Source: Bacteroidota bacterium
GTDB lineage: Bacteria; Bacteroidota; Bacteroidia; Bacteroidales; UBA12077
Direction: 5' to 3'
Length of the DNA stretch: 56,309 bases
Assembly: GCA_020049295.1 (NCBI GenBank)
Contig: JAIFLC010000018.1
Location: 1-56,309 of the forward strand
The position numbers and the translations under genes were made by a program. Shown here one piece after another: positions 17,395 through 55,533 of this stretch. The notes under the pieces are model-generated. The model was not told the DNA's origin. It made no database searches and saw nothing but the letters and a program-made list of their open reading frames with translations. How positions within the stretch are numbered: position 1 is the stretch's first letter; each line of letters starts with the position of its first letter.

Positions 17395-18186
17395 ATGAGT
17401 AAAAACAATGCTTTCGATAATGGTATCGTGATTCTGGGAGCAGGAAATGTTGCTACTCATTTGGCATTAGCACTTTTTAAATCAAATTATAGAATCAGGT
17501 TTGTTTTTAATAGAACAATTAATTCTGGCAAAGAACTTGCCTTAAAACTTAATGCAGATTATTCAGATGATTTTACCAAGGTTCCTGTAGATGCTGATCT
17601 ATATATTATCTCGGTAAAAGATGATGCAATTGAAGAAGTCGCCAATAGTCTCAAAAAAACTAATGGAATTGTAATACATACTGCTGGTGGAATTTCTTTA
17701 GATGTGTTGAAGAATTGCAAAAATTTTGGAGTTTTTTACCCCTTGCAAACCTTTACTAAAAAAAGATCTGTCGATTTAAGCGAAGTTCCCATACTGGTTG
17801 AAGCAAATAATGAAATTACAAAGAATAAGTTATTTCAACTTGCCCATCATATTACAATGAATGTATTTGAGATAAATTCTGAAAAAAGAAAAATGATTCA
17901 TTTAGCGGCAGTATTTTCTTGCAACTTTGTAAATCACATGTATACCATTGGTTCCCAATTAATGAAGAATTCTGAAAGCTCATTCGATTTGCTTAAACCT
18001 TTGGTAATAGAAACTGTCAATAAAGCAATAGATATGCAACCCGAAAATGCTCAAACAGGCCCGGCCTTGCGTAATGATAAGAAAGTAATGGAAAATCATC
18101 TTAAATTGCTTTCAGAATATCCTGAATTTGAAAAAATATATAGATTTGTGAGCGATAGCATTTATTCATCACAACGCAAAAAGTAA
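17395..18186 (+). CDS. Rossmann-fold oxidoreductase-like protein (DUF2520-type)
   Basis: GIVILGAGNVATHLALAL dinucleotide-binding motif near the N-terminus. I prefer the ATG at 17395. The TTG at 17314 in the ORF track adds a hydrophobic extension that overlaps the repeat region. Confidence 0.6.
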   Translation: MSKNNAFDNGIVILGAGNVATHLALALFKSNYRIRFVFNRTINSGKELALKLNADYSDDFTKVPVDADLYIISVKDDAIEEVANSLKKTNGIVIHTAGGISLDVLKNCKNFGVFYPLQTFTKKRSVDLSEVPILVEANNEITKNKLFQLAHHITMNVFEINSEKRKMIHLAAVFSCNFVNHMYTIGSQLMKNSESSFDLLKPLVIETVNKAIDMQPENAQTGPALRNDKKVMENHLKLLSEYPEFEKIYRFVSDSIYSSQRKK

Positions 18187-28925: not shown

Positions 28926-29017
28926 CAGAAAGGGCAGGAATCGAACCTGCCACAGCCGGTTTTATCCGTCTGCTACTGGTTTTGAAGACCAGGTGGAACA
29001 CCAGTTCCGTCCTTTCT
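28926..29017 (-). tRNA. selC: tRNA-Sec (anticodon UCA)
   Basis: Minus-strand sequence AGAAAGGACGGAACTGGTGTTCCACCTGGTCTTCAAAACCAGTAGCAGACGGATAAAACCGGCTGTGGCAGGTTCGATTCCTGCCCTTTCTG. It has a CTTCAAA anticodon loop (TCA), a 5-bp D-stem with a 4-nt loop, a long variable arm (CAGACGG/CCGGCTG) and a GCAGG-TTCGATT-CCTGC T-arm. CCA is not encoded. The exact ends are uncertain by 1-2 nt. Confidence 0.85.
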
Positions 29018-29044
29018 AATAAAACATTCTTCAATTTTATTGGA

Positions 29045-29052: not shown

Positions 29053-29378
29053 GAATTTTGAATTCTTAAAACCTAAAAAAAGAACACCATAACCAAAAAC
29101 AAAGTACTTGACCATCTTTTTAATTGATTAATAAGAATTCAGTAATACAATATATAGAATTGTCTTATCTGTTTTTAGATTAATTATAAATACTAATCTG
29201 GCAGCTTCTTAAAACAAGGAATTTGTATATTTGTATACAGTAGTATATAATCATATAAAGATATATCAGATCAAAAAGATGACTTTTATCATGTATTTAA
29301 GTAATAAATGTCATGTTCTTGCATATTGGCTAGTTCTATATTTAGAACTGTGAGAAGGGTACTTATTCTTAATTCTGT

Positions 29379-29411
29379 TGTTAAAAAAATAACAGTGTTA
29401 AAATAATAACA
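29379..29411 (+). promoter_or_regulatory. tandem CRP/FNR-like palindromes upstream of the formate dehydrogenase operon
   Basis: TGTTA-AAAAAA-TAACA (29379-29394), then G, then TGTTA-AAATAA-TAACA (29396-29411). The same 33-bp architecture occurs at 44863-44895 and 53033-53065. Confidence 0.55.
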
Positions 29412-29522: not shown

Positions 29523-29936
29523 ATGGAAAGATTAATCGTATTATCAGTAAAATGTCCTCACTGTGGTACATCTTTAATGGATGAATCTCATAAAGTTAAC
29601 GGACATCCCGGTATTAAACTTAATGTTGAAAATGATCGAGAGCGTGGAGTTTTGTGGTTATGTCCTATTTACGACTGCTTTAAACATGATTGCAATATAA
29701 CCTTAAAAGAAAATGAACTTGTAAAGTTTTATTGTCCTCATTGCAATCAATCATTGCTTCGTGAAATTCCTTGCAAAATCTGCAATGCACCTGTAGTAGG
29801 TTTAAATATCAACGTTGGAGGAAAAGTTAACATTTGTTCACGTAAGGGGTGCACAAATCATTATGTGGTTTTCGAAGATATAAATGATGCATTGCAACTG
29901 TTATATGACAAACTTGACAATACAAATCAAAAATAA
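29523..29936 (+). CDS. Cys-rich zinc-ribbon protein of unknown function
   Basis: 137 aa with two CPHC motifs plus CKIC and other Cys pairs, arranged as two ribbon-like halves. First gene of the fdh operon. I do not recognise the family. Confidence 0.55.
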   Translation: MERLIVLSVKCPHCGTSLMDESHKVNGHPGIKLNVENDRERGVLWLCPIYDCFKHDCNITLKENELVKFYCPHCNQSLLREIPCKICNAPVVGLNINVGGKVNICSRKGCTNHYVVFEDINDALQLLYDKLDNTNQK

Positions 29937-29957
29937 TATATTATTAATTGGTTAACT

Positions 29958-32678
29958 ATGGAAAATACGTTAAAGATTACGATTAATGGGAAGGTTTACG
30001 ATTCTTCTCCCGGAAAAACGGTTTTAGATATTGCTCGTGCGAACAACGTTTACATACCAACGTTATGCTATCACCCACGAACAGGTAAGGCTGGTAAATG
30101 CAGAGCTTGTTTGGTAGAAATTGAAGGATTTCGTGGCTTAAAAGAAAGTTGTGCGCTCGAAGCTAAAGATGGTATGATTATTAAAACGGATACTGAACAA
30201 ATAAAACAAGTTCGTAAAATGATCGTTGAGCTCCATCTGTCAAATGGTGAGCATAACTGCATTGCTTGTGAAAAAAACGGACATTGTGAACTTCAGGATA
30301 TGGCATACCATTGTGGTATTGAGCGTCCAGGTTTTCCTGAGTATCACGAAACAATTCCATTAGATGACTCAGCTGAAGGTATTATCAGAGACCATAATAA
30401 ATGTATCGAATGCGGAAGATGTGTTACAGCATGTAATAATAATGTAATGCACGAAGTACTTGATTTTGGATGGCGTTCAGGACATACAAAAGTAATTTGC
30501 GATAATGATTTGCCAATGGGTGAATCGTCATGTGTTCAGTGTGGCGAATGTGTTCAGGTTTGTCCAGTTGGTGCGTTGACTTTCAAAAATGCAAAAGGCA
30601 AAGGTCCTTATTGGGAACTTGAAAAGAAAAAAACTATTTGTACTTATTGTGGTGTTGGTTGTTCCATTGATATGTATGTGAAAGATAACAAGTGGGTTTA
30701 TTCAATGGGAACCGAAGAGAATTGGGAAAAACAGACAAATAAAGGAATGCTTTGTGTGAAAGGTCGATTTGGTATGGATTTCCTTGATCGTGAAGATAGA
30801 TTAACAACTCCTTTAATTAAGAAAAACGGAAAATTTGTAGAAGCAAGCTGGGATGAGGCTCTAAATCTTGTTTCCAGTAAATTAGGTGAAACAAAAGCAA
30901 AATATGGTGCTGGCTCTATTGGGTTTTTTACATCAGCCAGAACATCAAATGAAGATAACTATGCAATGATGCGTTTTGCACGAGGGGTGATCGGCACGAA
31001 CAATGTCGACCATTGTGCGCGGCTTTGACATAGCTCTACGGTTGCGGGACTGGCAGCCACGTTAGGTTCAGGAGCTATGACTAATAGCTTACAAGAAACC
31101 GAGAAATCTGATATAATCTTTGTTATTGGTACAAATACTACCTGGAATCACCCTGTTTTTGGCGGAATGGTCAAGAAAGCAGTAAAACGAAAAGGTGTTA
31201 AGCTTATCGTTGTTGATCCTCGTGATATCGATTTGGCAAAATGTGCAAATCTTCATTTAAAACAAAGACCAGGATCTGATTCAGCTGTACTTATGGGATT
31301 ACAGCATATAATTGTTAAAGAAAATTGGTATAATAAAGCATTTGTTGACGAGAGAACTGAAGGTTGGGATGATTATGTTAAAAGTCTTGAGTTCTATACT
31401 CCTGAAAAGGTTGAAGAGTTAAGTGGTATTTCTAAACAGCTACTTATTGATGCTGCAAAATTATATGCTACTTCTGGCAGAGGAGCTCTTTATTATGCAA
31501 TGGGGATTACTCAGCATACACATGGTGTTGATAATGTTAAAGCTTGCTCTAATCTGCAAATGATACTTGGAAACTTTGGTCTTGAAGGTACTGGTGTAAA
31601 CCCACTGCGTGGACAGAATAATGTTCAGGGAGCTTGCGACATGGGTGCTCTTCCTAATGTATTTACAGGTTATCAGCCTGTTACGGTTGAAGAAAACCGC
31701 AAGAAATTTGCTGATGCCTGGGGTGTGAAGGTTGAAAATATGGACGACAAGGTTGGACAAACGGTTACAACCATGGTGAATAATGCTGGTGATTCTATAA
31801 AAGCAATTTATATTATGGGTGAGAATCCTATGATGTCGGATCCTAATTTACATCATGCTGAAGAGCAATTCAAGAAACTTGATTTTCTTGTTGTTCAGGA
31901 TATTTTTATGACTGAAACAGCACAGATTGCTGATGTAGTTCTTCCTGCATGTGCTTTTGCTGAAAAAACAGGTACTTTCGTAAATACTGAAAGACGTGTA
32001 CAAATTTCTAATAAAGCATTAAATCAACCTGGTATTGCTAAAAATGATTTTGGAATTATTGTAGAGTTAGCTAAACGTATGGGATGTGATACATTTCCTG
32101 AAACACCAGAAACCTTATTTGAAGAGATGAGACAACTAACTCCTTCGTATAAAGGAATGACATACGAAAGATTAGAGAAAGAATGTGGATTAAGGTGGCC
32201 ATGTCCTACCGAAGATCATCCTGGAACTCCTATTCTACATGTTGGAAAATTCTCAAGAGGCAAAGGATTACTTGTTCCAATAGAATATAGAGCACCTGAA
32301 GAAGTTATAAGCAAAGAATATCCAATCTGGCTTACTACTGGAAGATTATTGCAGCATTATCATACCGGATCAATGACCAGAAGATCGAAAGTTCTTAACG
32401 GCTTAGTGCCTTATGCTAAAGTGGAAATAAATGTTGTAGATGCTAAGAAGCTTAAAATAAAAGATGGAGAAAAAGTAAAAGTCTCTTCAAGAAGAGGTTC
32501 TATTGAGATTCATGCAGAGGTGACTAAGAAAATACAAGAAGGAATAGTATTTATTCCTTTCCACTTTGTTGAGGCTGCTGCAAATCAATTAACCAATGAT
32601 GCTTTGGATCCAATAGCTAAAATACCTGAGTACAAAGTGTGTGCTGTTAAAATTGAAAAAATAGCAGATTGTTGTTAA
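29958..32678 (+). CDS. fdhA: selenocysteine-containing formate dehydrogenase alpha subunit (N-terminal [2Fe-2S]/[4Fe-4S] domains plus molybdo/tungstopterin domain)
   Basis: ORFs 29958-31028 and 31077-32678 share one frame. The TGA at 31026-31028 sits in the canonical VDHCARL-U-HSSTVAGL active-site motif. Fe-S motifs CIECGRCVTAC, CVQCGECVQVCP and CTYCGVGCS lie upstream. Confidence 0.92.
31029..31070 (+). promoter_or_regulatory. candidate bacterial SECIS element
   Basis: A hairpin, GGTTGC (31040-31045) / GCAGCC (31053-31058) with loop GGGACTG, starts 11 nt after the UGA. It lies over the same V-A-G-L codons as the E. coli fdhF SECIS (GGUUGCAGGUCUGCACC), recalled from memory. Confidence 0.6.
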
Positions 32679-32698
32679 CCATTAAAAAGTTTTAATTG

Positions 32699-34429
32699 AT
32701 GAATGATAAATTAATAAATAGTATTCAGCAGATTATGGCTAAATATCCTAAAAAGGAATCTGCCTTAATGCCTGCTTTAACTCTTGTTCAAAAGGCTAAT
32801 GACAATAATTTAACCAAAGAACTAGTTGCTGAGGTTGCTGAAATAATTGGGGTTACTCCTTCAAGAGCTTATGGTGTTGCTACTTATTATTCAATGTTTA
32901 ATGTGAATAAAAACGTTGGAAAATACCACATTCAGGTTGATACAAATGTACCAGCTACTCTTATGGGTGCACTTAAACTATATAAATATATTAGTGATAA
33001 GCTTGGTATTAAACACGGAGAAACAACCTCTGATGGATTATTTACACTGTCGAAAGTTGAATGTCTTGCTTCTTGTGGTACTTGCCCTGTAATACAGGTA
33101 AATGATGTGTATTATGAACTTATGACTCCCGAAAAGGTTGATATGCTCATTGATTCACTTCGAAAAGGTGTAATGCCTGAATTACCTGTAGAATATAACT
33201 GGGAATCCCAATGCAATGTTCTATTGAAAAGAAGAGGTGAAAAAAATGCTACTTCTATAAGTGTATATAAAAAGACAGGTGGATATCAGGTTTTGGCAAA
33301 AGCGTTGAAAATGAAACCTGAAGATATAATAAGTGAAGTTAAAAACTCTCAGTTGCGTGGTCGTGGTGGTGCAGGTTTTCCTACCGGAGTTAAGTGGAGT
33401 TTTCTTCCTAAAAATACAGGAAAACCAGTATATTTAATTTGCAATGCTGATGAAGGCGAACCTGGAACATTTAAGGATCGTCAGATTTTAGCTTATGATC
33501 CACATTTACTTATCGAAGGAATGGCTATTTCGGCGCATGCATTAGGTTGTAAGTTGGCATTTATATATATACGTGGTGAGTTTAACTGGATTGCCCAAAT
33601 TCTTGAAAAAGCGATTGAAGAAGCTAAAAAAGATGGTCAATTAAAAGATCTCAATATTATCGTTCATCTTGGGGCCGGCTCATATATCTGTGGTGAAGAG
33701 ACTGCTCTTATTGAATCAATAGAAGGCAAAAGAGGATTGCCAAGAATGAAACCACCATTTCCTGCTGTTTCTGGTTTGTATAATTGTCCAACAATTGTAA
33801 ATAACGTTGAGACTTTAGCTAGTATACCATATATTGTTGAGAATGGTGCTGATGCTTTTAAAAAATGGGGTTCTGAAGGCGGATATGGATTTAAACTTTT
33901 TGGTGTTTCCGGAGCAGTAAATAAGCCTGGTGTTTATGAATGCCCAATGGGAATCACTTTTAAAGAACTTATTGAACTTGCTGGAGGAGTTAAAGGTAAA
34001 ATGATTGGGGTTATCGTTGGTGGTTTATCAGTTCCAATTTTAACTACTGAGGAATTGAAAAAAGGTGCCGGATTAAAAATGGATTATGAATCTTGTATCG
34101 AGTACGGTACTTCATTAGGTTCTGGAGGTATCATGGTTATTACAGATGAGTTTTCAATTCCTGAAATTGCTGCCCGTACTATTCAATTCTATAACCATGA
34201 ATCATGTGGTCAGTGTACTCCTTGTCGCCAGGGATCTGGTATGATGGTTAGCTTACTGAATAAAATTGTTTCTGGCAAAGGTGAAAAAGGAGATATTGAC
34301 AAAGTATTATGGTTTTGTGACAATATAAAAGGCAATACACTTTGTCCAACAGGTGAAGCTTATTCATCACCTATTAAGGCAATGATAAATAAATTCAGAC
34401 CGGAATTTGAGAAATTGATTACTAATTAA
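32699..34429 (+). CDS. NAD(P)H-binding FDH beta subunit, fused NuoE-like and NuoF-like domains
   Basis: The N-terminal part is a thioredoxin-like NuoE domain. It is followed by LRGRGGAGFPTGVKW (FMN loop), NADEGEPGTF and ESCGQCTPCRQG (N3-type [4Fe-4S]). The ATG at 32699 is preferred over the TTG at 32696. Confidence 0.88.
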   Translation: MNDKLINSIQQIMAKYPKKESALMPALTLVQKANDNNLTKELVAEVAEIIGVTPSRAYGVATYYSMFNVNKNVGKYHIQVDTNVPATLMGALKLYKYISDKLGIKHGETTSDGLFTLSKVECLASCGTCPVIQVNDVYYELMTPEKVDMLIDSLRKGVMPELPVEYNWESQCNVLLKRRGEKNATSISVYKKTGGYQVLAKALKMKPEDIISEVKNSQLRGRGGAGFPTGVKWSFLPKNTGKPVYLICNADEGEPGTFKDRQILAYDPHLLIEGMAISAHALGCKLAFIYIRGEFNWIAQILEKAIEEAKKDGQLKDLNIIVHLGAGSYICGEETALIESIEGKRGLPRMKPPFPAVSGLYNCPTIVNNVETLASIPYIVENGADAFKKWGSEGGYGFKLFGVSGAVNKPGVYECPMGITFKELIELAGGVKGKMIGVIVGGLSVPILTTEELKKGAGLKMDYESCIEYGTSLGSGGIMVITDEFSIPEIAARTIQFYNHESCGQCTPCRQGSGMMVSLLNKIVSGKGEKGDIDKVLWFCDNIKGNTLCPTGEAYSSPIKAMINKFRPEFEKLITN

Positions 34430-34452
34430 TATTTATTAACAAAAATCTAAAA

Positions 34453-35727
34453 ATGGAAACAAAAAAACACAATCGATGGCTAATTGCTATCATGGGAACA
34501 GTTCTTCAGTTGGCTCTAGGTACAGTTTATGCATGGAGCTTTTTTCAAAAACCAATTATGGCTGCATTTGGTTGGACAAATGTGCAAGTAATGTGGATTT
34601 TCAGTTTGGCAATTTGCTTCCTTGGTATTGGAGCTGCAATTGGTGGTATGATCTTGCCAAAATATGGTCCAAAAAAATTAGCAACTACTGGTGCTATTAT
34701 GTGGGGTTTGGGTTGGTTAATTGGAGCTTTGGCAATGTCTATGAATAGTTTAGTATTGCTTTATATTGGTTATGGTGTTATCGGTGGTCTTGGTTTAGGA
34801 TTAGGCTATGTAACTCCAGTTGCAACTGCAGCAAAATGGTTTCCTGATAAAAAAGGTTTCATTACAGGTATGGTAGTTATGGGATTTGGCCTTGGTGCAT
34901 TATTAATGTCTAAGGTTATTGCTCCAACCTTCATGAATATGTTTGATGGTAATTTAGTACAGGTATTCACATTTACAGGTATATCTCTTCTCGTTTTAGG
35001 TATTACTGCAGGTCTTATTATGAAAAACCCTCCAGCAGGTTTTGTTCCTGAAGGTTATACTCCTCCAGTAAAAAGTGCTGCAAGCCAAGGTCATGAAGAT
35101 AGCTTAACAGCTAAAGCTTGTATTTTATCAAGAAAGTTTTTAGGAATGTGGCTTATATTCTTTCTAAATATCGCTGCCGGTATTATGTTTATTGGTTTAC
35201 AATCGCCAATGTTACAAGATCTTCTTAAAAACACAGGAAGCACTCTTGATACAGCAGGTCTTGCAGCAGCAGGTGCTACACTAATTGCTATTAGCTCATT
35301 GTTTAATGGAGTTGGTCGATTCTTCTGGGGTGGTTTATCAGATAAGATTGGCCGTATCCAGGCTTTCCGTTTAATCTTAGGATCTCAAATTCTTGTTTTC
35401 GCAATGCTTGTTTGGGTTGGAAATCCTTGGTTATTTGGAATTATGGTTTGCTACGTTCTATTATGCTACGGTGGTGGATTCGGTACAATGCCATCATTTG
35501 TTGGTGATATTTTTACAGCAAAATTAATGCCTGTAGTGTATGGTGTTATTTTAACTGCTTGGTCTGTAGCAGGTATCGTTGGTCCACAGATTGCAGCTTA
35601 TATTAAAGATAACTTTGTTGAAACAGCTGCTACAAAAACATTTATTGCTGGTGCAATTATGTTGACTATTGGATTTGTTATTGCATTAACATTGACTAAC
35701 AAGTCTATTACTCATGGTAAAGAATAA
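34453..35727 (+). CDS. MFS transporter, oxalate/formate antiporter (OFA)-like
   Basis: 424 aa with about 12 predicted TM helices and an N-terminus (NRWLIAIMGTVLQLALGTVYAWSFF) typical of OFA-family MFS proteins. Sits next to the FDH genes. Confidence 0.8.
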   Translation: METKKHNRWLIAIMGTVLQLALGTVYAWSFFQKPIMAAFGWTNVQVMWIFSLAICFLGIGAAIGGMILPKYGPKKLATTGAIMWGLGWLIGALAMSMNSLVLLYIGYGVIGGLGLGLGYVTPVATAAKWFPDKKGFITGMVVMGFGLGALLMSKVIAPTFMNMFDGNLVQVFTFTGISLLVLGITAGLIMKNPPAGFVPEGYTPPVKSAASQGHEDSLTAKACILSRKFLGMWLIFFLNIAAGIMFIGLQSPMLQDLLKNTGSTLDTAGLAAAGATLIAISSLFNGVGRFFWGGLSDKIGRIQAFRLILGSQILVFAMLVWVGNPWLFGIMVCYVLLCYGGGFGTMPSFVGDIFTAKLMPVVYGVILTAWSVAGIVGPQIAAYIKDNFVETAATKTFIAGAIMLTIGFVIALTLTNKSITHGKE

Positions 35728-35811
35728 TTATATACATATTTGATTATTGACTAAATTTGCAAATACCTTCGAATATTGAAGGTATTTGCATTTTTATAAA
35801 AATATTAATCT

Positions 35812-44862: not shown

Positions 44863-44895
44863 TGTGAAAACAATAACAGTGTGAAAATCGTAACA
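44863..44895 (+). promoter_or_regulatory. tandem CRP/FNR-like palindromes upstream of hydrogenase cluster 1
   Basis: TGTGA-AAACAA-TAACA (44863-44878), then G, then TGTGA-AAATCG-TAACA (44880-44895). The element ends 10 bp before a TATCTTTG -7 box. Confidence 0.6.
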
Positions 44896-44905
44896 AAAAT
44901 ATTTT

Positions 44906-44913
44906 TATCTTTG
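44906..44913 (+). promoter_or_regulatory. candidate -7 box (TATCTTTG), distal promoter of hydrogenase cluster 1
   Basis: Exact TAnnTTTG match with the same 10-bp spacing from the tandem element as at 53076-53083. A second TAnnTTTG match (TAATTTTG) lies at 45051-45058. Confidence 0.4.
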
Positions 44914-45101: not shown

Positions 45102-45497
45102 ATGACAAAAATCAAAACAATTGCAGATCTTGTAAAATTGCGAGACGAACTGCAATCGAAACAAGCCCTTGCTGATAGTGCTGATAATGCTGAAAGTATT
45201 ATTCAGATTAAAATTGGTATGGGTACCAGCGGAATTGCTTCGGGAGCCAAAGATGTTATGGATTTTTTAATTGAAGCCTTGGAAAAAAGAAATATTGAAG
45301 CAATCGTATCTCAAACTGGTGATATGGGTTATAGCTATGCAGAACCTACTATTTCTGTAAAAAAACCAGGCAAATCTCCTATTATTTTCGGCTATGTTAA
45401 TGTTCAAAAAGCTGATGAGATAATTGAAAAATACATTAAACGTGACGAACTGGTTGAAGGTGTTATACCAGTTAATTATCATACTATTGATAATTAA
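45102..45497 (+). CDS. HndB-like thioredoxin-fold ferredoxin-domain protein lacking all Cys
   Basis: 131 aa. The layout is homologous to the N-terminal domain of ORF 53587-55533 ([14 protein letters not shown]... / ...[11 protein letters not shown]). The protein contains no cysteine. Confidence 0.6.
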
Positions 45498-45517
45498 AAA
45501 ATTTGGAGGAAATAAAT

Positions 45518-46984
45518 ATGACAAAATATAAACAAATAAGAATAGTACTTAATAATTGCGGAGTTATAGATCCTGAAAATATTGAAGAAAGCATTGCTCG
45601 GGATAGTTATATGGCTTTAGGTAAATGTATTACCGAAATGACTCCACAAGATGTTATTAAAGAAATTAAAGAATCTGGATTAAGAGGTCGTGGCGGAGGT
45701 GGTTTCCCAACTGGCTTAAAATGGGAGATTGCATCAAAAAACCATGCCGATCAAAAATATGTAGTTTGTAATGCCGACGAAGGCGATCCGGGTGCATTTA
45801 TGGACAGATCGGTACTTGAAGGCGATCCACACGCTGTTTTGGAAGCTATGGCAATTTGCGGATATGCAATTGGTGCAACAAAAGGATTGATTTATATCCG
45901 TGCGGAATATCCAATGGCAATCAAACGTCTCAAAATTGCAATTGATCAAGCTCTTGAATATGGACTTTTAGGTAATAATATCTTTGGAAGCAAATTCGAC
46001 TTTAACATTGAATTACGATATGGTGCTGGTGCATTTGTTTGCGGTGAGGAAACATCATTAATTCATTCCATGGAAGGATTACGTGGTGAACCAACAATAA
46101 AACCACCATTCCCTGCAGAAAAAGGTTATCTAGGAAAACCCACAAATGTGAATAATGTAGAAACCTTTGCTTGTGTTCCTATAATTATCAGAAAAGGAGC
46201 AAGCTGGTTTAACAAAATTGGTACTGAAAAATCGAAAGGAACAAAAGTATTTGCATTAGCAGGAAAGGTTAACAACGTTGGACTAATCGAAGTTCCAATG
46301 GGCACGACCTTACGTGAGGTGATTTTTGAGATCGGCGGTGGAATTCAAAATGGTAAAAAATTTAAAGCTGTTCAAACTGGTGGTCCATCGGGTGGTTGCT
46401 TAACCGAAAAACACCTCGATACTCCAATAGATTTTGATAATCTTATTGCAGCAGGTTCTATGATGGGCTCTGGTGGTATGATTGTTATGGACGAAGATAA
46501 CTGTATGGTTTCTGTAGCCAAATTTTATCTCGATTTTACTGTCGAAGAATCATGTGGAAAATGTTCTCCTTGCCGTATTGGTAATAAAAGACTCTACGAA
46601 TTACTCGAAAGAATTACAAAAGGACAGGGCGTAATGGATGATTTGCAGCGATTACGAAATATGAGTAATGTGATTAAAGATACATCTCTATGCGGATTAG
46701 GACAAACATCTCCAAATCCGGTATTGTCAACCCTCGATAATTTTTATGATGAATATGTAGCTCACATTAAGGATCATAAATGCCCTGCTGGCCAATGCAA
46801 AGATTTAATGAAGTATTTCATTATTGCTGAAAATTGTGTTGGTTGTACAGCTTGTGCCCGTGTTTGTCCGGTTGGAGCAATTACTGGCGAAAAGAAAGAA
46901 CCTCATTTTATCAATTCTGAAATCTGTATTAAATGCGGTGCTTGTATGGAGAGATGTAAATTTGACGCAATCATTATTAAATAA
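45518..46984 (+). CDS. hydB: NuoF-like NAD(P)H/FMN subunit of a multimeric [FeFe]-hydrogenase (HydB/HndC type)
   Basis: [37 protein letters not shown] and two C-terminal ferredoxin motifs ([23 protein letters not shown]). The ATG at 45518 is preceded by GGAGG, and I prefer it over the TTG at 45503. Confidence 0.9.
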
Positions 46985-46998
46985 TAATAAGTTGTACA

Positions 46999-48774
46999 AT
47001 GGAAAAAGTAAAATTATCAATAGATAACAAGCTTGTAGAAGTAGAAAAAGGGACTACTATTTACAAAGCTGCTAAACAATTAGGAATCGATATCCCTGTG
47101 CTTTGTTACATGAATCTCGAAGGACTTGGTATTGAAAATAAACCAGGTGGTTGCCGAATTTGTGTTGTCGAAGTAGAAGGAAGAAGGAATCTGGCTCCAT
47201 CATGCTCAACAGATTGTACAGAGGGAATGGTAGTTCATACTCACACTATGCGAGTTATAAATGCCCGAAGAACAGTTATGGAATTTATCCTTTCAGATCA
47301 TCCAAAAGATTGCTTAACATGTGCAAAATCGGGTAATTGTGAATTGCAGGATATGGCTGTAAAATTGGGTATTAGAGAAATTCCTGGTCAGGAATATGCT
47401 GCCATGTCAACATACAAAATGGATTTTTCACCATCTATAATCCGCGATCTTGATAAATGCATCATGTGCCGTCGTTGTGAAATGATGTGTAATGAATTTC
47501 AAACAGTAGGTGCATTATCAGCTTTTAACCGAGGATTTCAGTCAGCAGTTGGTCCTGCTTTTGAAATGGATATTGAGGATTCAACATGTACATATTGTGG
47601 ACAGTGTGTTGCAGTTTGCCCAACTGGAGCATTAACCGAAAAGGACCACACCCGCGATGTTATTAATGCACTTTCTGATCCTACTAAAACGGTTATTGTT
47701 CAAACTGCTCCTGCAGTTCGTGCTGCTCTTGGAGAAGAGTTTGGCCTAAAACCTGGAACATTGGTTACGGGTAAAATGGTTACTGCATTGCGTCGTTTGG
47801 GATTTAACTATGTGTTCGATACTGATTTTGCTGCCGACTTAACCATTATGGAAGAAGGTACAGAACTATTAGGACGATTAACCAAATTTCTTGGCGGTGA
47901 TAAAGAGGTTAAGTTACCAATACTTACATCTTGCTGTCCTGCTTGGGTTAATTTCTTCGAGCATAATTTCCCCGAAATGAAAGATATTCCATCAACAGCT
48001 CGTTCTCCACAACAGATGTTTGGTGCTATTGCCAAAACATATTTTGCTGATAAAATAAAAGTTAAGCGTGAAGATTTGGTGGTAGTTTCTATCATGCCAT
48101 GTCTGGCAAAGAAATACGAAGCACAACGCGATGAGTTTAAAGTTGATGGAAATCCGGATGTGGATTTTTCTCTTTCGACACGTGAGCTTGCTCATTTAAT
48201 TAAACAAGCTAATCTCGATCTAAAAACATTACCTGATGAAGATTTTGACAAACCACTTGGTGAATCTACCGGTGCTGCAGTAATTTTTGGTGTTACCGGT
48301 GGTGTTATCGAAGCTGCTACCCGAACTGCATATGAATTACATACAGGTAAAAAACTAGCTAAAGTTGAATTTGAGCAATTGCGCGGAATGGAATTTATCC
48401 GAAAAGCAACAATCGATTTTAATGGGACTCCTATAAATATTGGTATTGCACATGGATTAGGAAATGCACGTAAACTCCTTGATGAAATAAAAGCAGGTAA
48501 GTCTGAATTCCATGCAATAGAAATAATGGCTTGTCCAGGAGGTTGTATAGGTGGCGGTGGTCAGCCATTGCACCATAGCGACTCAAGTATTCTTAAAGCT
48601 CGTACAAAAGCAATTTATGCCGAGGATGAAGGTAAAGTTCTTCGTAAATCACACGAAAACCCATACATTATTAAATTGTATGAAGAGTTCTTAGGTAAAC
48701 CAATGAGCGAAAAAGCTCATCATTTGTTGCATACACATTATTTCGACAAAAGCGGAAAAATTGAAATCAGCTAG
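46999..48774 (+). CDS. hydA: [FeFe]-hydrogenase catalytic subunit (group A, multimeric/bifurcating type)
   Basis: All three H-cluster motifs are present (TSCCPAWV, IMPCLAKKYE, EIMACPGGCIGGGGQP), along with N-terminal [2Fe-2S] and multiple [4Fe-4S] domains. Confidence 0.95.
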   Translation: MEKVKLSIDNKLVEVEKGTTIYKAAKQLGIDIPVLCYMNLEGLGIENKPGGCRICVVEVEGRRNLAPSCSTDCTEGMVVHTHTMRVINARRTVMEFILSDHPKDCLTCAKSGNCELQDMAVKLGIREIPGQEYAAMSTYKMDFSPSIIRDLDKCIMCRRCEMMCNEFQTVGALSAFNRGFQSAVGPAFEMDIEDSTCTYCGQCVAVCPTGALTEKDHTRDVINALSDPTKTVIVQTAPAVRAALGEEFGLKPGTLVTGKMVTALRRLGFNYVFDTDFAADLTIMEEGTELLGRLTKFLGGDKEVKLPILTSCCPAWVNFFEHNFPEMKDIPSTARSPQQMFGAIAKTYFADKIKVKREDLVVVSIMPCLAKKYEAQRDEFKVDGNPDVDFSLSTRELAHLIKQANLDLKTLPDEDFDKPLGESTGAAVIFGVTGGVIEAATRTAYELHTGKKLAKVEFEQLRGMEFIRKATIDFNGTPINIGIAHGLGNARKLLDEIKAGKSEFHAIEIMACPGGCIGGGGQPLHHSDSSILKARTKAIYAEDEGKVLRKSHENPYIIKLYEEFLGKPMSEKAHHLLHTHYFDKSGKIEIS

Positions 48775-48803
48775 TTTGAAATTAAATTTGGAGGAAAAAA
48801 TCA

Positions 48804-49292
48804 ATGTCAAGAATAAAAGTTAAAATAAAAGAAAAAGACTTAAATATCATTAAGGAAATTTGTAAGTCATTTAATAACGAACAAGGTGAGTTGATAAATG
48901 TGTTACACAAAACTCAGGAACATTTTGGTTATTTACCTGCCGAGATTCAGGAAGTAGTTGCCAAAGAATTGGAAATGTCAGTTGCTAAAGTATATGGTGT
49001 AGTTACATTCTACTCATTCTTTACCATGAAACCAAAAGGCAAATTCCCAATTTCTATATGTACTGGAACAGCATGTTATGTGCGTGGCGCCGAAAATGTA
49101 TTAGGAGAATTTAAAAGACAGTTAAATATTGAGGTTGGAGAAACAACTCCGGATGGCAAATTCTCATTAAGCTGCCTCCGTTGTGTTGGTGCTTGCGGTT
49201 TGGCTCCTGTCGTATTAGTTGGTGATAAAACGTATGGTAGGGTTTCGCCCGAAGGAGTTAAAGATATTCTTGCTGAATACAACGATAAATAG
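48804..49292 (+). CDS. hydC: NuoE-like [2Fe-2S] subunit (HydC/HndA type)
   Basis: 162 aa with an intact Cys pattern (ICTGTACYVRGA ... CLRCVGACGLAP). GGAGG lies 9 nt upstream of the ATG. Confidence 0.9.
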   Translation: MSRIKVKIKEKDLNIIKEICKSFNNEQGELINVLHKTQEHFGYLPAEIQEVVAKELEMSVAKVYGVVTFYSFFTMKPKGKFPISICTGTACYVRGAENVLGEFKRQLNIEVGETTPDGKFSLSCLRCVGACGLAPVVLVGDKTYGRVSPEGVKDILAEYNDK

Positions 49293-49453: not shown

Positions 49454-50638
49454 TTAAATAAACTTCAAACTCACTTCTTTCAGAAACTTTTGCTCCAGTG
49501 TTTTGGCAATTCGTTTTACTACGGTTCTTCGAATCTCTAGTTCAACTGGTAGGTTTGGGTCCTGATGTGCAATGTTTATTCGGGTTCCTATAATAAAGTT
49601 AATTTCATCGCTGTCTTTTATCAATTTTACAATCTGATCGGCCGGGCCTTTGCCTAATTGGTAGTTGTTGTTATATATTTTTAGAATTTCAGAAACCTTA
49701 CTCAATGTTAAGATTCCTTCGGTTACCAGATCTATTCCGGGCATATAAGAAATAGGAGGTAGGTCGGGATCGTCGAACTCGAAACTATCGGTAATTTTTA
49801 AATCCAGTTCTCGGGCGATGATATCTCCCGTAGTTGCTCCACAAAGAATTTTTCGACCATCGAAATTACGAACTGCATCAGCTAATTGTTTATCGCGATC
49901 TTCTTCGTAAGGTGGCCCGGTACAGATTAATAATTTGCGTGGTTCGCGGAAATATATTAAGCCGCAACTTGAATCATCTTTAGCGTGGTAACCATCATTC
50001 TGATATGCACTATTTACAACCTTACCCGATAGTTTATAAGCTGATATTTTTGGATCATTTGTTATTAATCTCTTGGTAAAGTTTTCCAGATTATCAAGTC
50101 CCCAGCCAAATGGATATTTATCTGATCCCAGACCAGATTGGGTAATTCCGTCAGAACAGAATATCAAACGATCTTCAATCTGAGCCTGGAATGTGCAGCT
50201 TCGAAGTTCTTTACCTGCATTTTTTTCGCTTTGCAGAATTATGCATTTCCATTCAGGGTCAAACTTTTTATTATCTCTGAAAATTAATGTATTTGGATTG
50301 TCGTATTCAAGAATTGTTGTTTTCCCGGTGGTTTCAATATCGATAATTGTAAAAGTAGAGTAACTAATTCTTCGCTGACTGCATACAGGCAACGTGTTCA
50401 TAATGATTTCGGCAATGCGGTTTACATCCTTATGTTCTTTAGTAAAGCTCAGAGCCATTGTGGCTGTTAGTGTAGCCAACATATTTGCTTTTATGCCATG
50501 GCCCATTCCATCAGACAAAACGACAATTGTCCTACTTTCATTTTTAATTCTTTCCGAAAGAAAAACATCACCGCAGATTCGCTCTCCTTCGTGGTTTTTT
50601 TGTTGACAGTCGACCTCAATATAGAACTTGTTTTCCAT
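49454..50638 (-). CDS. SpoIIE/PP2C-family protein phosphatase with an uncharacterised C-terminal domain
   Basis: The N-terminal part has ICGDVFL...VVLSDGMGHGIKANMLA (PP2C metal-binding motifs). The C-terminal ~190 aa are not recognised. Its start lies 2 nt after the hydS stop. Confidence 0.85.
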   Translation of the reverse strand: MENKFYIEVDCQQKNHEGERICGDVFLSERIKNESRTIVVLSDGMGHGIKANMLATLTATMALSFTKEHKDVNRIAEIIMNTLPVCSQRRISYSTFTIIDIETTGKTTILEYDNPNTLIFRDNKKFDPEWKCIILQSEKNAGKELRSCTFQAQIEDRLIFCSDGITQSGLGSDKYPFGWGLDNLENFTKRLITNDPKISAYKLSGKVVNSAYQNDGYHAKDDSSCGLIYFREPRKLLICTGPPYEEDRDKQLADAVRNFDGRKILCGATTGDIIARELDLKITDSFEFDDPDLPPISYMPGIDLVTEGILTLSKVSEILKIYNNNYQLGKGPADQIVKLIKDSDEINFIIGTRINIAHQDPNLPVELEIRRTVVKRIAKTLEQKFLKEVSLKFI

Positions 50639-50640
50639 AG

Positions 50641-52500
50641 CTATTGCTCTTTCTTAAAGGTTTTATAAAGTTCAACTATGGAGTTTAACATTTGTTCAGT
50701 TTCCGAAGCTCCCTCACCAAGTAGAAATCCGATTTTCTGAACCATTTCAAGATTCTTATCAATAACATCATTGACACGCTTAATTACTTCTTCTTTACGA
50801 ACTTCTGGCGAGCTCATATCACGGAATACAGCACCCACAATTTTATCTTTTCGGATAACAAAAATGGATAAATTCAAAAATCGGTCCTCTATATAAATAT
50901 CTCGGTTCAGTATATTTTCATTGGTCGAGAAAACATTCGTAAACAAATTGTAAATATTGAAAGGTATCAGCGTTTTTAAATCAGCACCAACCAATTGCGG
51001 AATTACTTCGTTAATTGATTTGGCTTCGTCGCCCAACATATTAATAAAGCTAGTATTCGATTGAACAATTTTTAGGTTTTTATCAATAATTACTATTCCT
51101 GCGTTTAATTTATGCAGCATATTATTGATAATATCAGATGCTTCTTGAGCTGCATCTTTTTCTTTGAGTGCAATTTGTTCCGAATCTTGCAGTGCTTTTT
51201 GTGTTTGAGCAAGTTTTTCGTTTGTCGATCGTAGGGATTTAATGTATTCGTGTCTATTTTTTAAGGTATAAGTAAGGCACATCTCAGTTTTAGCCAGACC
51301 TTTCGAAACAGCAATTGCAAAGTCTCGACACGAGTCGTAACCACAGGCATTGCATCCTAAATCCGGATTTCCTGTATCCTTACCAATAGATTTAAGTACT
51401 TCATTTATTTTTTCTTCCGAAGGTGTTTCTATACGCTGATCATCATTTACAAAAGTTCTTGAATAATCCAGATCCCAGTACTTCTCGATTTCTTTTTTCC
51501 AGGTTTCAATATCAAATTTTTTTAATCGTTTATTGGCATAATCGGTTACCCTGGTTCGTCGTATAAATTTTTTCCCGTTACGCGAAGTCCCCGGACCCAT
51601 TAAACAACCTTCGCAATAATAAAGATTAAAGTGTTTTTTTATAGTTTCTGTATCTTCGAAAAATTGTTTTACTGCTGTTAGCATATTTGATTTGCCTTCT
51701 GCGTTTATAACGACACCCGTAAGTAGATCTTCACTAATTGATGCTGCTTGCAATATTCCGTTAGATATCGGGAATAATGAACCTTTGTAACCTATTGGAG
51801 TATCAAATTCTGAATATTCGAGAGTACTTTCTTTTATGTTAAATTCATTAAATAATTCTCTGAGCTCTATAAAAGTGAGAACCGCATCAATTCTTCCATC
51901 ATCTGAAAAATCCATTGCTTCATTTTTGTTTTCGATGCAAGGGCCAACATAGATTACCTTAGTATCATTACCGTATATTTTACGAACAATTTTGGCGGTA
52001 GCAATCATGGGCGATACAATAGGTGCAAGATTTTCAAGAAGTTCAGGTTGAAATTTCTGAACATATGAAACAACTACAGGGCAAGCGGTTGATATATAAT
52101 ACTTTCCTTTAAAATTTTTATAAAGCTCAGCATATTTAAGTGATATGATGTCGGCACCAAAAGATACTTCGTTAATGTGATCGAATCCTAGTTGTTTGAA
52201 CATTTGTACGAATTTTCTATAATCGGTAATATCATGAAATTCGCCTGATATACTTGGTGCTACAACAGCAACTTTTTTGCTTTTCTCCTTTAGTAGTTTT
52301 TTCGTTTGTTCTTTTGAATCAAGGAAACGAATGGCATCCTGTGGGCATACAGAAGTACAGCTTCCACAACCAATACATCGTTCGGGAATGATACGGGCGT
52401 AATCTTTATTTATCTTAACCTCAATTGCGTTAACAGGGCAAACTCTAACACAAGAGTAGCTTAAGTCGCATTTTTCTTTTATGATTTCAACTAATTGCAT
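50641..52500 (-). CDS. hydS: sensory (group C, HydS/HfsB-like) [FeFe]-hydrogenase with a C-terminal PAS-like domain
   Basis: N-terminal 2x[4Fe-4S] (CVRVCP, CIGCGSCTSVCP). Degenerate H-cluster motifs: STACP instead of TSCCP, GPCIENKNE instead of MPCxxKxxE, and YCEGCLMGPG. An extra 4-Cys motif (CNACGYDSC...C) follows, then a PAS-like C-terminus. Confidence 0.85.
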   Translation of the reverse strand: MQLVEIIKEKCDLSYSCVRVCPVNAIEVKINKDYARIIPERCIGCGSCTSVCPQDAIRFLDSKEQTKKLLKEKSKKVAVVAPSISGEFHDITDYRKFVQMFKQLGFDHINEVSFGADIISLKYAELYKNFKGKYYISTACPVVVSYVQKFQPELLENLAPIVSPMIATAKIVRKIYGNDTKVIYVGPCIENKNEAMDFSDDGRIDAVLTFIELRELFNEFNIKESTLEYSEFDTPIGYKGSLFPISNGILQAASISEDLLTGVVINAEGKSNMLTAVKQFFEDTETIKKHFNLYYCEGCLMGPGTSRNGKKFIRRTRVTDYANKRLKKFDIETWKKEIEKYWDLDYSRTFVNDDQRIETPSEEKINEVLKSIGKDTGNPDLGCNACGYDSCRDFAIAVSKGLAKTEMCLTYTLKNRHEYIKSLRSTNEKLAQTQKALQDSEQIALKEKDAAQEASDIINNMLHKLNAGIVIIDKNLKIVQSNTSFINMLGDEAKSINEVIPQLVGADLKTLIPFNIYNLFTNVFSTNENILNRDIYIEDRFLNLSIFVIRKDKIVGAVFRDMSSPEVRKEEVIKRVNDVIDKNLEMVQKIGFLLGEGASETEQMLNSIVELYKTFKKEQ

Positions 52501-53032: not shown

Positions 53033-53065
53033 TGTGAATAATATAACAATGTTTAATTTGTAACA
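53033..53065 (+). promoter_or_regulatory. tandem CRP/FNR-like palindromes in the hydS / hydrogenase cluster 2 divergent region
   Basis: TGTGA-ATAATA-TAACA (53033-53048), then A, then TGTTT-AATTTG-TAACA (53050-53065). The element ends 10 bp before a TATATTTG -7 box. Confidence 0.6.
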
Positions 53066-53075: not shown

Positions 53076-53083
53076 TATATTTG
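53076..53083 (+). promoter_or_regulatory. candidate -7 box (TATATTTG) for hydrogenase cluster 2
   Basis: Exact TAnnTTTG match about 43 nt upstream of the ATG at 53126. Confidence 0.45.
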
Positions 53084-53125: not shown

Positions 53126-53587
53126 ATGCCCGATATTGAATCGATCCTTCAAAAGTACCCTTTTATTCATCAAGAGAACATAATACCCATTTTAACTGAA
53201 ATACAGGATAGTTTTGGTTTCCTTTCGACTGAAGCTATTAAGAAAGTAGGTGATTATTTTAAAATTCCTACCAGTAAAATCTATGGATTAGCTACATTTT
53301 ATGGTAAATTCAGGTTTCAAGCCAAAGGCAAATATCATATAAGAATATGTAATGGAACTTCATGTCATATAAACTTAAATACCATAGTTTTAAAAGAGCT
53401 TTATAAAATGCTTGGAATACAGGATGGTGAGGTAACAAAAAATGGTTTATTTAGTATCGAAAGAACTGGGTGCTTGTGTGGTTGCGATGCTGGACCAGTT
53501 ATGGTTGTTAATGATAAGACATATTTAAATCTTAACATCGACAAAGTTCATGAGATTATTCATTTTTATATGCAAATTGATACCTAA
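53126..53587 (+). CDS. NuoE-like [2Fe-2S] subunit, hydrogenase cluster 2
   Basis: 153 aa with ICNGTSCHINLN ... GCLCGCDAGP cysteine motifs and the GLATFYGKFRF block. Confidence 0.88.
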   Translation: MPDIESILQKYPFIHQENIIPILTEIQDSFGFLSTEAIKKVGDYFKIPTSKIYGLATFYGKFRFQAKGKYHIRICNGTSCHINLNTIVLKELYKMLGIQDGEVTKNGLFSIERTGCLCGCDAGPVMVVNDKTYLNLNIDKVHEIIHFYMQIDT

Positions 53588-55533
53588 TGACAACAGAAAT
53601 TTCAGCAAATAAAGATTTTATTGTTCATGAGATTCTGCTTAGTGATACAGATTCATATTCAAAGCCAGTTATCGATAAACTAAGTATCATTCGAAGAGAA
53701 AAGGCATCTTTTCCTTTGATTACAATATCCCAGAATTCGGGATCGATAATAACTGGCACAAATCGGTTGCCCGAAATAGTGAGAAACTATCTTATAGAAA
53801 GAAATATTAAGGCAACAGTGCTGGAGGTTGGCAGTAATGGTATATGTTCACTCGAAACCTTCATATCTATTCAATTGCCTGGCAAAACCAAACTTTTATA
53901 TAAGAAGGTTAAAGAAGAGAATATTATAGCAATTCTCGATGGTCATTTCAATAATTACATAGTTACCGATCATGTTTTTGGTCAATTTCGTAACAAAATC
54001 CATGAACCGTATGAAAATACTGCTTTTATCGATGAAATAGCTTATTTTAATAATCAACAGCGAATTGTATTAAAGAATTGCGGAATTATTGATCCAAATT
54101 CAATAGATGAATATATAGCATTTGGAGGGTATAAGGCTTTTATTAAATCGTTGAAGCATTATACTCATCAGGATGTCTGTAATATTGTTGAAGAAAGTAT
54201 GCTTAGAGGACGCGGAGGAGAAGGGTTTTATACAGGAAAAAAATGGAAAATTACGTTGAATACTCAAGGTGATCAGAAATATTTAATTTGTAATGCCGGG
54301 GAAACTGATCCCGGGGCATTTATGGAGCGGCTTCTTATCGAAAGTGATCCTCATAAAGTGATCGAAGGTATTGCAATTGCTTCATATGCAATAGGAGCAA
54401 GAAAAGCTTTTATTTATATTGAGGGTGATTATGATTTAGCTATTCAGCGACTTACAAATGCTATTCAGAAAGCTAAAGAATACGGAATTCTAGGAAATGA
54501 TATTTTTAATAGCGGATATTCTCTGGAAGTAGTAGTAAAAAAAGGAGCAGGAGCAAGCATTTGTGGCGAAGAAACAGCATTAATTGCATGTATCGAAGGG
54601 AAAAGAGGGATTCCGCATTCAAAACCCCCTTATCCTGCAACATATGGTTTATTTGGTTATCCTACTGTAGTTAATAATGTCGAAACTCTTGTAAATATTC
54701 CAACAATTATTGAGAAAGGTGCACAATGGTTTAATTCAATTGGTGCTGCTGACAGTAAAGGAACAAAGGTTTTTTCAGTTAGTGGAAAAGTAGAGATTAT
54801 TGGATTAGTCGAAATTGAAATGGGAACCAAAATTCGCGATATTATTTTTCGCGTTGCAGGTGGTATTCCCAACAACAAAAAACTAAAAGCAATACATATT
54901 GGTGGACCCTTGGGTGGAATGGTAGGCGAAGATCATCTAGATTCTATTATCGATTATGATTCTATTATGCTTACGGGAACATCTCTGGGATCTTCAGGAA
55001 TGGTTGTGCTCGATGAAGATAGTTGTATTATCGATACGGTAAAGTATTTTATGAACTTCCTTCAGCGAGAAAGTTGTGGAATATGTATCCCATGCAGGGA
55101 AGGAACCCGAAGAATGTTTGATATACTCGAAAATATTAGTAAGCGACCAAAAGATGATCTTGGAAATTCTTCGCTACAGCGATTTAAAGGAGTTATGCAG
55201 CTCGAAAATCTTGCTGAGGTGATTAAAGATACATCAATGTGTGGTTTTGGCATAAAAGCAGCAATTCCTGTTTTAACTTCATTAAAATGGTTCCGTCAGG
55301 AATACGAGGATCATATTTTTAATCGAAATTGCAGTGCAGGAGTTTGTCAGGAGCTGAAAACATTTGAAATTAATATCGAAGAATGCACCGGCTGTACATT
55401 GTGTGCTAAAAAATGTCCAACTGCTGCAATTATTGGAACACCTAAAAACGCACATTTTATTGTTCAGGACAAATGCATTGGATGTGGTATTTGTTTTGAA
55501 ACGTGTGTATTTAATGCAATTATCAGCAAATAA
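53587..55533 (+). CDS. NuoF-like subunit with a fused N-terminal HndB-like domain, hydrogenase cluster 2
   Basis: 648 aa. Residues 1 to about 130 are homologous to ORF 45102-45497. Then come a divergent FMN loop (LRGRGGEGFYTGKKW), NAGETDPGAF, ESCGICIPCREG and two C-terminal ferredoxin motifs. Confidence 0.88.
   Translation: MTTEISANKDFIVHEILLSDTDSYSKPVIDKLSIIRREKASFPLITISQNSGSIITGTNRLPEIVRNYLIERNIKATVLEVGSNGICSLETFISIQLPGKTKLLYKKVKEENIIAILDGHFNNYIVTDHVFGQFRNKIHEPYENTAFIDEIAYFNNQQRIVLKNCGIIDPNSIDEYIAFGGYKAFIKSLKHYTHQDVCNIVEESMLRGRGGEGFYTGKKWKITLNTQGDQKYLICNAGETDPGAFMERLLIESDPHKVIEGIAIASYAIGARKAFIYIEGDYDLAIQRLTNAIQKAKEYGILGNDIFNSGYSLEVVVKKGAGASICGEETALIACIEGKRGIPHSKPPYPATYGLFGYPTVVNNVETLVNIPTIIEKGAQWFNSIGAADSKGTKVFSVSGKVEIIGLVEIEMGTKIRDIIFRVAGGIPNNKKLKAIHIGGPLGGMVGEDHLDSIIDYDSIMLTGTSLGSSGMVVLDEDSCIIDTVKYFMNFLQRESCGICIPCREGTRRMFDILENISKRPKDDLGNSSLQRFKGVMQLENLAEVIKDTSMCGFGIKAAIPVLTSLKWFRQEYEDHIFNRNCSAGVCQELKTFEINIEECTGCTLCAKKCPTAAIIGTPKNAHFIVQDKCIGCGICFETCVFNAIISK

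Follow-up and report, generated by a model that had tools for sequence, protein, structure and literature searches.

The 56,309-nucleotide stretch analysed here (hereafter the window) covers positions 1 to 56,309 of the forward strand of contig JAIFLC010000018.1 (assembly GCA_020049295.1), from an uncultured Bacteroidota bacterium placed in the Bacteroidales lineage UBA12077. Contigs with identical proteins are all of metagenomic origin. Its genes include an operon for a formate dehydrogenase (FDH) and two operons for HydABC-type [FeFe]-hydrogenases, as identified with Pfam, and all three carry NuoE/NuoF-type NAD(H) modules. FdhA (29958-32678) is of the selenocysteine type, with an in-frame TGA at 31026-31028. 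The second hydrogenase operon continues beyond the last complete open reading frame (ORF), and in the related locus L006 a HydA-type gene comes next in its counterpart. An initial annotation of this DNA had placed a 33-bp tandem element upstream of the FDH operon and of both hydrogenase operons, and the Pfam gene context agrees with that assignment. Comparative analyses suggest that these elements are tandem operators of the redox-sensing repressor Rex, and that the three operons are probably controlled together by the NADH/NAD+ ratio.

All three elements lie on the plus strand, and each consists of two 16-bp palindromes of the form TGTKN-N6-TAACA with one base between them and a start-to-start distance of 17 bp, just as the initial annotation had described. 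The hydrogenase-1 element reads 44863 TGTGAAAACAATAACA g TGTGAAAATCGTAACA 44895, the hydrogenase-2 element 53033 TGTGAATAATATAACA a TGTTTAATTTGTAACA 53065, and the FDH element 29379 TGTTAAAAAAATAACA g TGTTAAAATAATAACA 29411 (individual sites in Table 1). With an intergenic GC content of just 26%, the window might be expected to produce chance likenesses of this kind. However, the tandem pattern occurs three times in the window versus 0.04 times expected by shuffling, even with two mismatches allowed, and the single-site pattern gives 13 strand matches versus 2.04 expected. Sites were also scored with a symmetrised 20-bp profile built from 34 sites of other genomes, from which the window sites were left out to avoid circularity. 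Among approximately 56,000 positions, the six window sites rank 1, 2, 3, 4, 6, and 10 by this profile, the order of starts being 29396, 53033, 29379, 44863, then 35676 and 53050, with 44880 tenth. The intergenic DNA of the window (5.2 kb, 26% GC) holds six sites scoring at least 10 versus 0.36 expected, and three pairs spaced at 17 bp versus none in 1000 composition-matched Markov simulations. Additionally, the same gene heads carry the element in 15 genomes and about 100 metagenome loci. Chance likeness within AT-rich intergenic DNA, to which next to no probability was given, is therefore refuted by the shuffling, the profile ranking, the scan of relatives' loci, and the simulations, and the earlier contention that three phased occurrences are not AT-rich noise is upheld by shuffling, Markov simulations, and the independent profile alike. 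An Rfam scan of the whole window returned tRNA-Sec only, the element and leader matching no known RNA, and the 187-nt leader before unk131, the first gene of hydrogenase operon 1, is no more structured than ordinary sequence (z = 0.21).

Table 1. Predicted operators, promoter boxes, and operons of the window.
Feature	Sequence	Coordinates	Strand	Remarks
Distal Rex-type operator, hydrogenase-1 promoter, predicted	TGTGAAAACAATAACA	44863..44878		Profile score 17.6, window rank 4
Proximal Rex-type operator, hydrogenase-1 promoter, predicted	TGTGAAAATCGTAACA	44880..44895		Score 10.8, rank 10; over expected -33 region
Distal Rex-type operator, hydrogenase-2 promoter, predicted	TGTGAATAATATAACA	53033..53048		Score 20.8, rank 2; orthologous L006 site at 17460
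Proximal Rex-type operator, hydrogenase-2 promoter, predicted	TGTTTAATTTGTAACA	53050..53065		Score 12.5, rank 6
Distal Rex-type operator, FDH operon, predicted	TGTTAAAAAAATAACA	29379..29394		Score 19.6, rank 3; perfect TGTTA-N6-TAACA
Proximal Rex-type operator, FDH operon, predicted	TGTTAAAATAATAACA	29396..29411		Score 21.9, rank 1
Candidate single operator, uncertain status	TGTTATTGCATTAACA	35676..35691		Score 15.7, rank 5; within 3' end of MFS gene
-7 box (Bacteroidota type), unk131-hydB-hydA-hydC operon	TATCTTTG	44906..44913	+	TAnnTTTG, starts 10 nt past element
-7 box, hydC2-hydB2 operon	TATATTTG	53076..53083	+	TAnnTTTG, starts 10 nt past element; same layout in L006
Operon 1, predicted to be regulated		45102..49292	+	131-aa protein, HydB (NuoF-like, 45503-46984), HydA [FeFe]-hydrogenase (46999-48774), HydC (NuoE-like, 48804-49292); Pfam
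Operon 2 (start), predicted to be regulated		53126..55533	+	HydC2 (NuoE-like), HydB2 (NuoF-like); runs on past last complete ORF; Pfam
Operon 3, predicted to be regulated		29523..35727	+	Zinc-finger small protein, FdhA, NuoE/NuoF-fusion NAD(H) module (32696-34429), MFS transporter; Pfam

The initial annotation had described the palindromes as CRP/FNR-type and proposed joint control of formate and H2 metabolism by a regulator of this family, acting either as a class II activator or as a repressor. CRP/FNR-family proteins are numerous in Bacteroidota, the 5-6-5 geometry of CRP sites (TGTGA-N6-TCACA) is shared by the elements, and TGTGA is present in three of the six left half-sites of the window. 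Some GC-richer TGTGA/TCACA tandems found in metagenomes, without a link to rex or hydrogenase genes, could also belong to such regulators. However, the consensus of the 34 relatives' sites is (A/T)TGT(T/G)A-W6-TAACA(A/T), in which TAACA forms the right half and position 4, where CRP needs G, is T in 29 sites and position 13 A in 31; the FNR form TTGAT-N4-ATCAA is absent. No cNMP-binding or HTH_Crp gene was found in the window, among the relatives' accessory genes, or in the annotated loci L206-L247. By contrast, rex recurs next to the element, and the same element stands before rex itself. Among the window proteins Pfam finds neither a CRP/FNR-family gene, as had been reported, nor a rex gene. 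By estimate, the elements do not take up class I or class II positions either (see below). Control by a CRP/FNR-family protein is thus considered quite improbable, and the assignment of the palindromes to that family is not sustained.

In contrast, the core of the sites is that of the published Rex operator (TTGTGAANNNNTTCACAA, TTGTGAA-N4-TTCACAA). Rex operators of Firmicutes, Thermotogota, and Actinobacteria are palindromes of 16-18 bp with the same core, TGT(G/T)A-N6-T(C/A)ACA, and the AT-rich TGTTA..TAACA variant is that of Clostridia and Thermoanaerobacter. For instance, the Thermoanaerobacter operator is ATTGTTANNNNNNTAACAAT (ATTGTTA-N6-TAACAAT), the clostridial/Thermoanaerobacter form has been given as TTGTTAA-N4-TTAACAA, and the sites predicted before the adhE and hfsABCD hydrogenase genes of T. 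saccharolyticum (TTGTTAAATGAATAACAA and TTGTTAATAAATTAACTA) fit TGTTA-N6-TAACA. All six window sites hold the 16-bp core TGTKN-N6-TAACA, with the outer T/A and inner A/T positions partly kept. In five Clostridia loci (L051, L059, L064, L073, and L076), the same profile picks out a single TTGTTAA..TTAACAA box immediately ahead of hydC, and in the phylum to which Clostridia belong, electrophoretic mobility shift assays have demonstrated that Rex binds FeFe-hydrogenase promoters as well as its own. A control with the adhE2 region of pSOL1 carries little weight: the best intergenic match is a Rex-like box (score 12.4) that is tied to no published footprint, and a stronger match lies inside a coding region. 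The latter, at 6806-6821 of L248 (C. acetobutylicum pSOL1), is a very strong profile match (TTTGTTATTTTATTAACATA, score 19.6) within the adhE2 coding sequence.

Co-location of a regulator gene with a motif, including a copy of the motif before the regulator itself, is a standard comparative-genomics criterion for pairing the two. When Thermotoga Rex was used as a query, only Thermotogota-like proteins were returned. A Bacteroides Rex sequence, which served as a search probe only, retrieved genuine Bacteroides proteins listed as Rex by NCBI. Searching 50%-identity representatives and then searching by homology led to a large family annotated as 'MAG: redox-sensing transcriptional repressor Rex [Bacteroidales bacterium]' (MAG, metagenome-assembled genome). 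The members tested all pass the NCBIfam Rex equivalog NF003994, with 253-338 bits at a cut-off of 130. Six Rex clusters (P0260, P0468, P0410, P0456, P0439, and P0486) are each encoded immediately ahead of a DRTGG-headed hydrogenase operon. Five of these have the full layout hydC-hydB-hydA, rex, DRTGG-HATPase-(HydS-like)-DRTGG-PHP-HATPase-unk130-hydB-hydA-(hydC), and P0260, on a short contig, has rex followed by DRTGG, HATPase, and PHP genes; in a seventh Rex cluster, P0262, rex is directly upstream of a hydC-type gene. The proteins of the rex-linked loci are similar to those of the window (HydB 76-79% identical, HydA and HydC 77-78%), and every strong profile match in these loci (score of at least 11) precedes rex, the DRTGG-headed operon, or the unk131 homolog.

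This arrangement forms a hydrogenase supercluster in many Bacteroidales MAGs (L216-L246, e.g. L219 3983-16654), comprising a short hydC-hydB(385 aa)-hydA operon, rex, and a long sensor/kinase/PHP operon that ends in unk130-hydB(597 aa)-hydA-hydC. In the window's clade, rex is gone from the supercluster position and tandems stand in place of the single sites.

Conservation at orthologous promoters was found as well. The window HydB retrieved 80 loci from species-representative genomes, and the tandem is kept at the head of the hydrogenase operon in 15 of the 22 closest Bacteroidales MAGs (HydB identity 77-91%). Neighbouring sites in the closest Bacteroidales loci are exactly 17 bp apart in 16 of 20 pairs, and across the 1.33 Mb of loci scanned, sites scoring at least 13 in the close clade are almost confined to these promoter regions. 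In several relatives the operon is longer, with DRTGG, HATPase, HydS-like, PHP, and HATPase genes ahead of unk131-hydB-hydA-hydC. More distant Bacteroidales lack the tandem, and the Clostridia loci do not have the sites in tandem form. The earlier proposal that one motif, and thus a shared regulator, is common to the FDH operon and both hydrogenase operons is supported by the relatives' profile and by the orthologous hydrogenase promoters.

The two units of each window element also resemble direct repeats (GTGTGAAAAnnnTAACA occurs twice), and a different DNA-binding protein, such as a response regulator fed by two-component or HydS/PP2C genes, might read the 17-bp units in that form. The window does encode kinases (a Cache histidine kinase and a hybrid kinase), a receiver protein, and a HydS-like sensor accompanied by a PP2C phosphatase, and no rex was found close to the loci that carry the tandem in the closest clade. 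However, the units are individually palindromic and their weak asymmetry switches orientation from genome to genome, and therefore they are likely to be read by symmetric dimers rather than as direct repeats. In addition, the receiver protein (167 aa) has no DNA-binding domain, the relatives' accessory genes encode none, and an identical tandem stands before rex genes. Recognition by such a protein in place of Rex is considered unlikely.

Metagenome contigs were scanned for the exact tandem pattern, which gave at least 120 loci. Hydrogenase-cluster genes lie within 2.5 kb of the tandem in 88 of 120 loci, and in 84 of 104 when the AT-rich TGTTA-type tandems are taken. In nine of the 120, the gene immediately following the tandem is rex (L088, L094, L123, L137, L172, L178, L183, L187, and L198), and several of these tandems head rex-nuoE-nuoF-type operons of high-GC organisms. 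L187, with 31% GC and a TAATTTTG box, is of Bacteroidota type; just two strong sites occur in its 14 kb, and they pair up as a TGTTA-type tandem with 17-bp spacing just before rex. Glutamate dehydrogenase (GDH) genes directly follow the tandem in L091 (4039-5376), L165 (7381-8718), and L158 (574-1911). In L091 and L165, gdhA is the first gene of an operon that also contains hydC-, hydB-, and hydA-like genes (gdhA-hydCBA). These operons are predicted further targets and suggest that a GDH-linked HydABC-type complex is under the same predicted control. Longer arrays of the 17-bp unit (at least three copies, e.g. TGTTATTATCATAACA repeated) are present in L109 (3268-3317), L160 (361-438), and L182 (2725); neither hydrogenase nor rex genes are linked to them, and they may be a different type of repeat.

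Both hydrogenase elements end exactly 10 bp before a TAnnTTTG -7 box (44895/44906 and 53065/53076), as the initial annotation had noted, and 10 bp is the mode of this offset over many related promoters. The -7 box of Bacteroides is conventionally placed at about -12 to -5. With transcription starts inferred on that basis, the proximal operator is estimated to span approximately -38 to -23 and the distal operator approximately -55 to -40, with centres at about -30 and -47. The 10-bp mode would put the proximal site over the -33 region, and the suggestion that the element takes the -33 position, as fits promoter occlusion, is therefore retained. The accompanying suggestion of a class II activator is not, because the estimated centres are not at -41.5 and the tandem is downstream of the -7 box in some operons. 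Nor do the estimated centres reach the class I position, at about -61.5 or beyond. Similar to other Bacteroidota sigma-A promoters (-33 TTTG / -7 TAnnTTTG), those studied here have a canonical -7 box 10 bp past two of the three elements and past most orthologous ones, but the proximal operator stands where the -33 element would be. A scan for sigma-70-type promoters gave nothing above background, as expected for a Bacteroidota promoter. Footprinted Streptomyces Rex operators extend from -39 to -17, -42 to -16, and -50 to -22, thereby including the -35 region; the proximal site would thus be in the classical position of a Rex repressor.

Not all related promoters share this spacing. Over 143 elements, the -7 box is 8-11 bp away in 56 and approximately 30 bp away in 27, which form a second promoter class, and single sites beside cluster-encoded rex genes are also about 30 bp from the box. 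Rex could therefore bind from an upstream site (about -47 to -50) and stimulate or fine-tune transcription instead of simply repressing it, since rex-linked relatives and many hydC2-type promoters have a site or tandem at least 30 bp upstream of the -7 box, outside the core promoter. In contrast, the Rex proteins characterised in the published work consulted are repressors whose operators overlap the promoter, and the two hydrogenase promoters of the window each have a proximal site estimated to overlap the -33 region. Elsewhere the tandem lies at or downstream of the start region: in L091 it is 3 nt downstream of a TAACTTTG box, ahead of gdhA-hydCBA, and it spans the start regions of sigma-70-type promoters in L088 and L094. 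As judged from their sequences, these three placements are repressor positions. A stimulatory role of Rex accordingly appears improbable.

About 20 promoters share a further conserved motif, TATTTAGAA, which precedes the tandem at a fixed distance of approximately 17 bp (e.g. L086, L087, L097, and L103; others are L111, L120-L122, L130, L136, L143, and L161). The motif is also present in the FDH promoter at 29339-29347, 31 bp upstream of the tandem and inside GTTCTATATTTAGAAC, a 6-4-6 inverted repeat. This motif may be the site of a second factor or an upstream promoter element.

Rex is a homodimer with a winged-helix (Put_DNA-bind_N) and a Rossmann-fold (CoA_binding) domain that binds DNA at a low NADH/NAD+ ratio and is released by NADH. 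The favoured reading, with a probability of about three in four, is that the 33-bp elements are tandem Rex operators through which the FDH operon and the two hydrogenase operons are repressed in response to NADH/NAD+. A Rex encoded elsewhere in the genome would presumably bind the sites, with repression as the effect and NADH as the signal. At low NADH/NAD+, two Rex dimers would occupy the two abutting palindromes, one each. The operators would span about -55 to -23, and the proximal dimer would cover the -33 region of the Bacteroidota sigma-A promoter and block RNA polymerase. Fermentation would raise NADH, and Rex would leave the DNA. The resulting derepression would allow synthesis of the formate dehydrogenase, which is NAD(H)-linked, and of both NuoE/NuoF-containing [FeFe]-hydrogenases, and reducing equivalents could leave as formate and H2. 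All targets hold NuoE/NuoF-type NAD(H) modules, and the enzymes induced when NADH is high would therefore be ones that reoxidise it.

Several observations weigh against this reading. No rex gene is present in the 56-kb window or within 10 kb of the tandem-bearing hydrogenase loci of the closest clade. The 12 Bacteroidales Rex contigs examined all come from MAGs other than the tandem-bearing L006-L027, and among L001-L085 no Rex was found as a regulator gene beside the element, the relatives' extra genes encoding DRTGG, HATPase, HydS-like, and PHP proteins and no DNA-binding protein. Hydrogenase loci of distant Bacteroidales (L028-L057) are essentially without the motif, with one weak match in L043, and the gut Bacteroides rex locus has no such site; autoregulation at the latter was considered and rejected because no site is present at the locus. 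Since the motif is missing at both, the regulon would be lineage-restricted. With regard to the sites themselves, the base before TAACA is a purine in all six window sites and T in the Rex consensus, and the match is thus to the 16-bp core and not to the 18-mer. The FDH element has no canonical TAnnTTTG within 45 bp, and for the single sites and tandems about 30 bp from a -7 box, which sit at about -50 or further upstream, occlusion is not obvious. Finally, literature searches found no Rex regulon or Rex study in Bacteroidota, although the search was limited and is not proof of novelty.

Compared with known Rex regulons, the predicted one has similar targets (hydrogenases and NAD(H)-linked enzymes), an operator before rex, and, at the two window hydrogenase promoters, an estimated overlap with the upstream promoter element. 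In contrast to them, it belongs to a Bacteroidales host with a -33/-7 sigma-A promoter, its window sites have a purine for T beside the right half-site, rex is not adjacent in the window's clade, and the sites form strictly phased, abutting pairs 17 bp apart from centre to centre. Rex control of hydrogenases is known in Firmicutes and Thermotogota. The predicted system is therefore probably a known kind of control that is apparently new for Bacteroidales, with the strict 17-bp pairing as an unusual detail. No abutting, 17-bp-phased Rex operator pairs were described within the limited literature searched.

With centres 17 bp apart (about 1.6 helical turns), two bound dimers would lie on roughly opposite faces of the helix. 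They would also be closely packed, because single-site footprints are 23-29 nt. Cooperative binding of two Rex dimers is plausible. The 17-bp pair recurs independently in Bacteroidota hydrogenase, FDH, and gdhA promoters and in the promoter of rex itself in both low-GC and high-GC lineages. A more tentative possibility, rated clearly below even odds, is that the phased operator pair marks a distinct higher-order Rex-DNA assembly that responds to NADH cooperatively and in a switch-like manner, as a general but unrecognised mode of Rex binding and not a local duplication. The fixed pairing would offer a clean system for studying whether Rex dimers bind DNA cooperatively.

Between the two hydrogenase operons, a HydS-like sensory [FeFe]-hydrogenase and a PP2C phosphatase are encoded on the minus strand (49454-52500). 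In relatives (e.g. L006 5386-9135), a module of DRTGG, anti-sigma-like HATPase, HydS-like, PHP, and HATPase genes lies inside the operon predicted to be controlled by Rex. Both arrangements resemble HydS-type clusters with PP2C/kinase modules (the hfs type of Firmicutes), in that HydS-like and PP2C genes are present in the window and DRTGG, HATPase, HydS-like, and PHP genes share one operon in relatives. They differ in that the module proteins of the window and its relatives have no DNA-binding domain, and for that reason these proteins cannot be the factor that reads the element. The gene content suggests that a module of this type is an H2-sensing, non-DNA-binding layer of control besides Rex.

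Overall, the analysis links the enzymes that produce H2 and formate in widespread, uncultured anaerobic Bacteroidales, which are found in sediments, biofilms, and digesters, to a specific, testable regulator, Rex, with the NADH/NAD+ ratio as its signal. The Rex regulon would thereby reach a phylum whose promoters are of an unusual type. Combined with the HydS/PP2C module next to the operons, Rex control suggests that two inputs, the internal redox state and H2, decide when electrons are vented. This decision bears on the interspecies transfer of hydrogen and formate in anaerobic communities.

Further features of the window concern the genes around the elements. The 131-aa first gene product of operon 1 (gene at 45102-45497, plus strand) has no Pfam match, and its homologs in related MAGs have weak 2Fe-2S_thioredx (NuoE-like) matches. 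It may be a degenerate extra NuoE/HydC-like subunit that is conserved ahead of hydB-hydA-hydC. The candidate single operator at 35676-35691 lies approximately 60 bp upstream of a TAAATTTG box that precedes a MobA-like gene. Downstream of this site and before the same gene, the region 35752-35790 contains the TAAATTTG box and a perfect hairpin with an 11-bp stem (AAATACCTTCGAATATTGAAGGTATTT). On the minus strand, a 1113-aa ORF (25548-28889) joins a complete SelA region to a SelB-type elongation factor (GTP_EFTU, domain 2, and SelB beta-barrel) and looks like a SelA-SelB fusion. It adjoins the tRNA-Sec gene (28926-29018) and selD (22505-23542).

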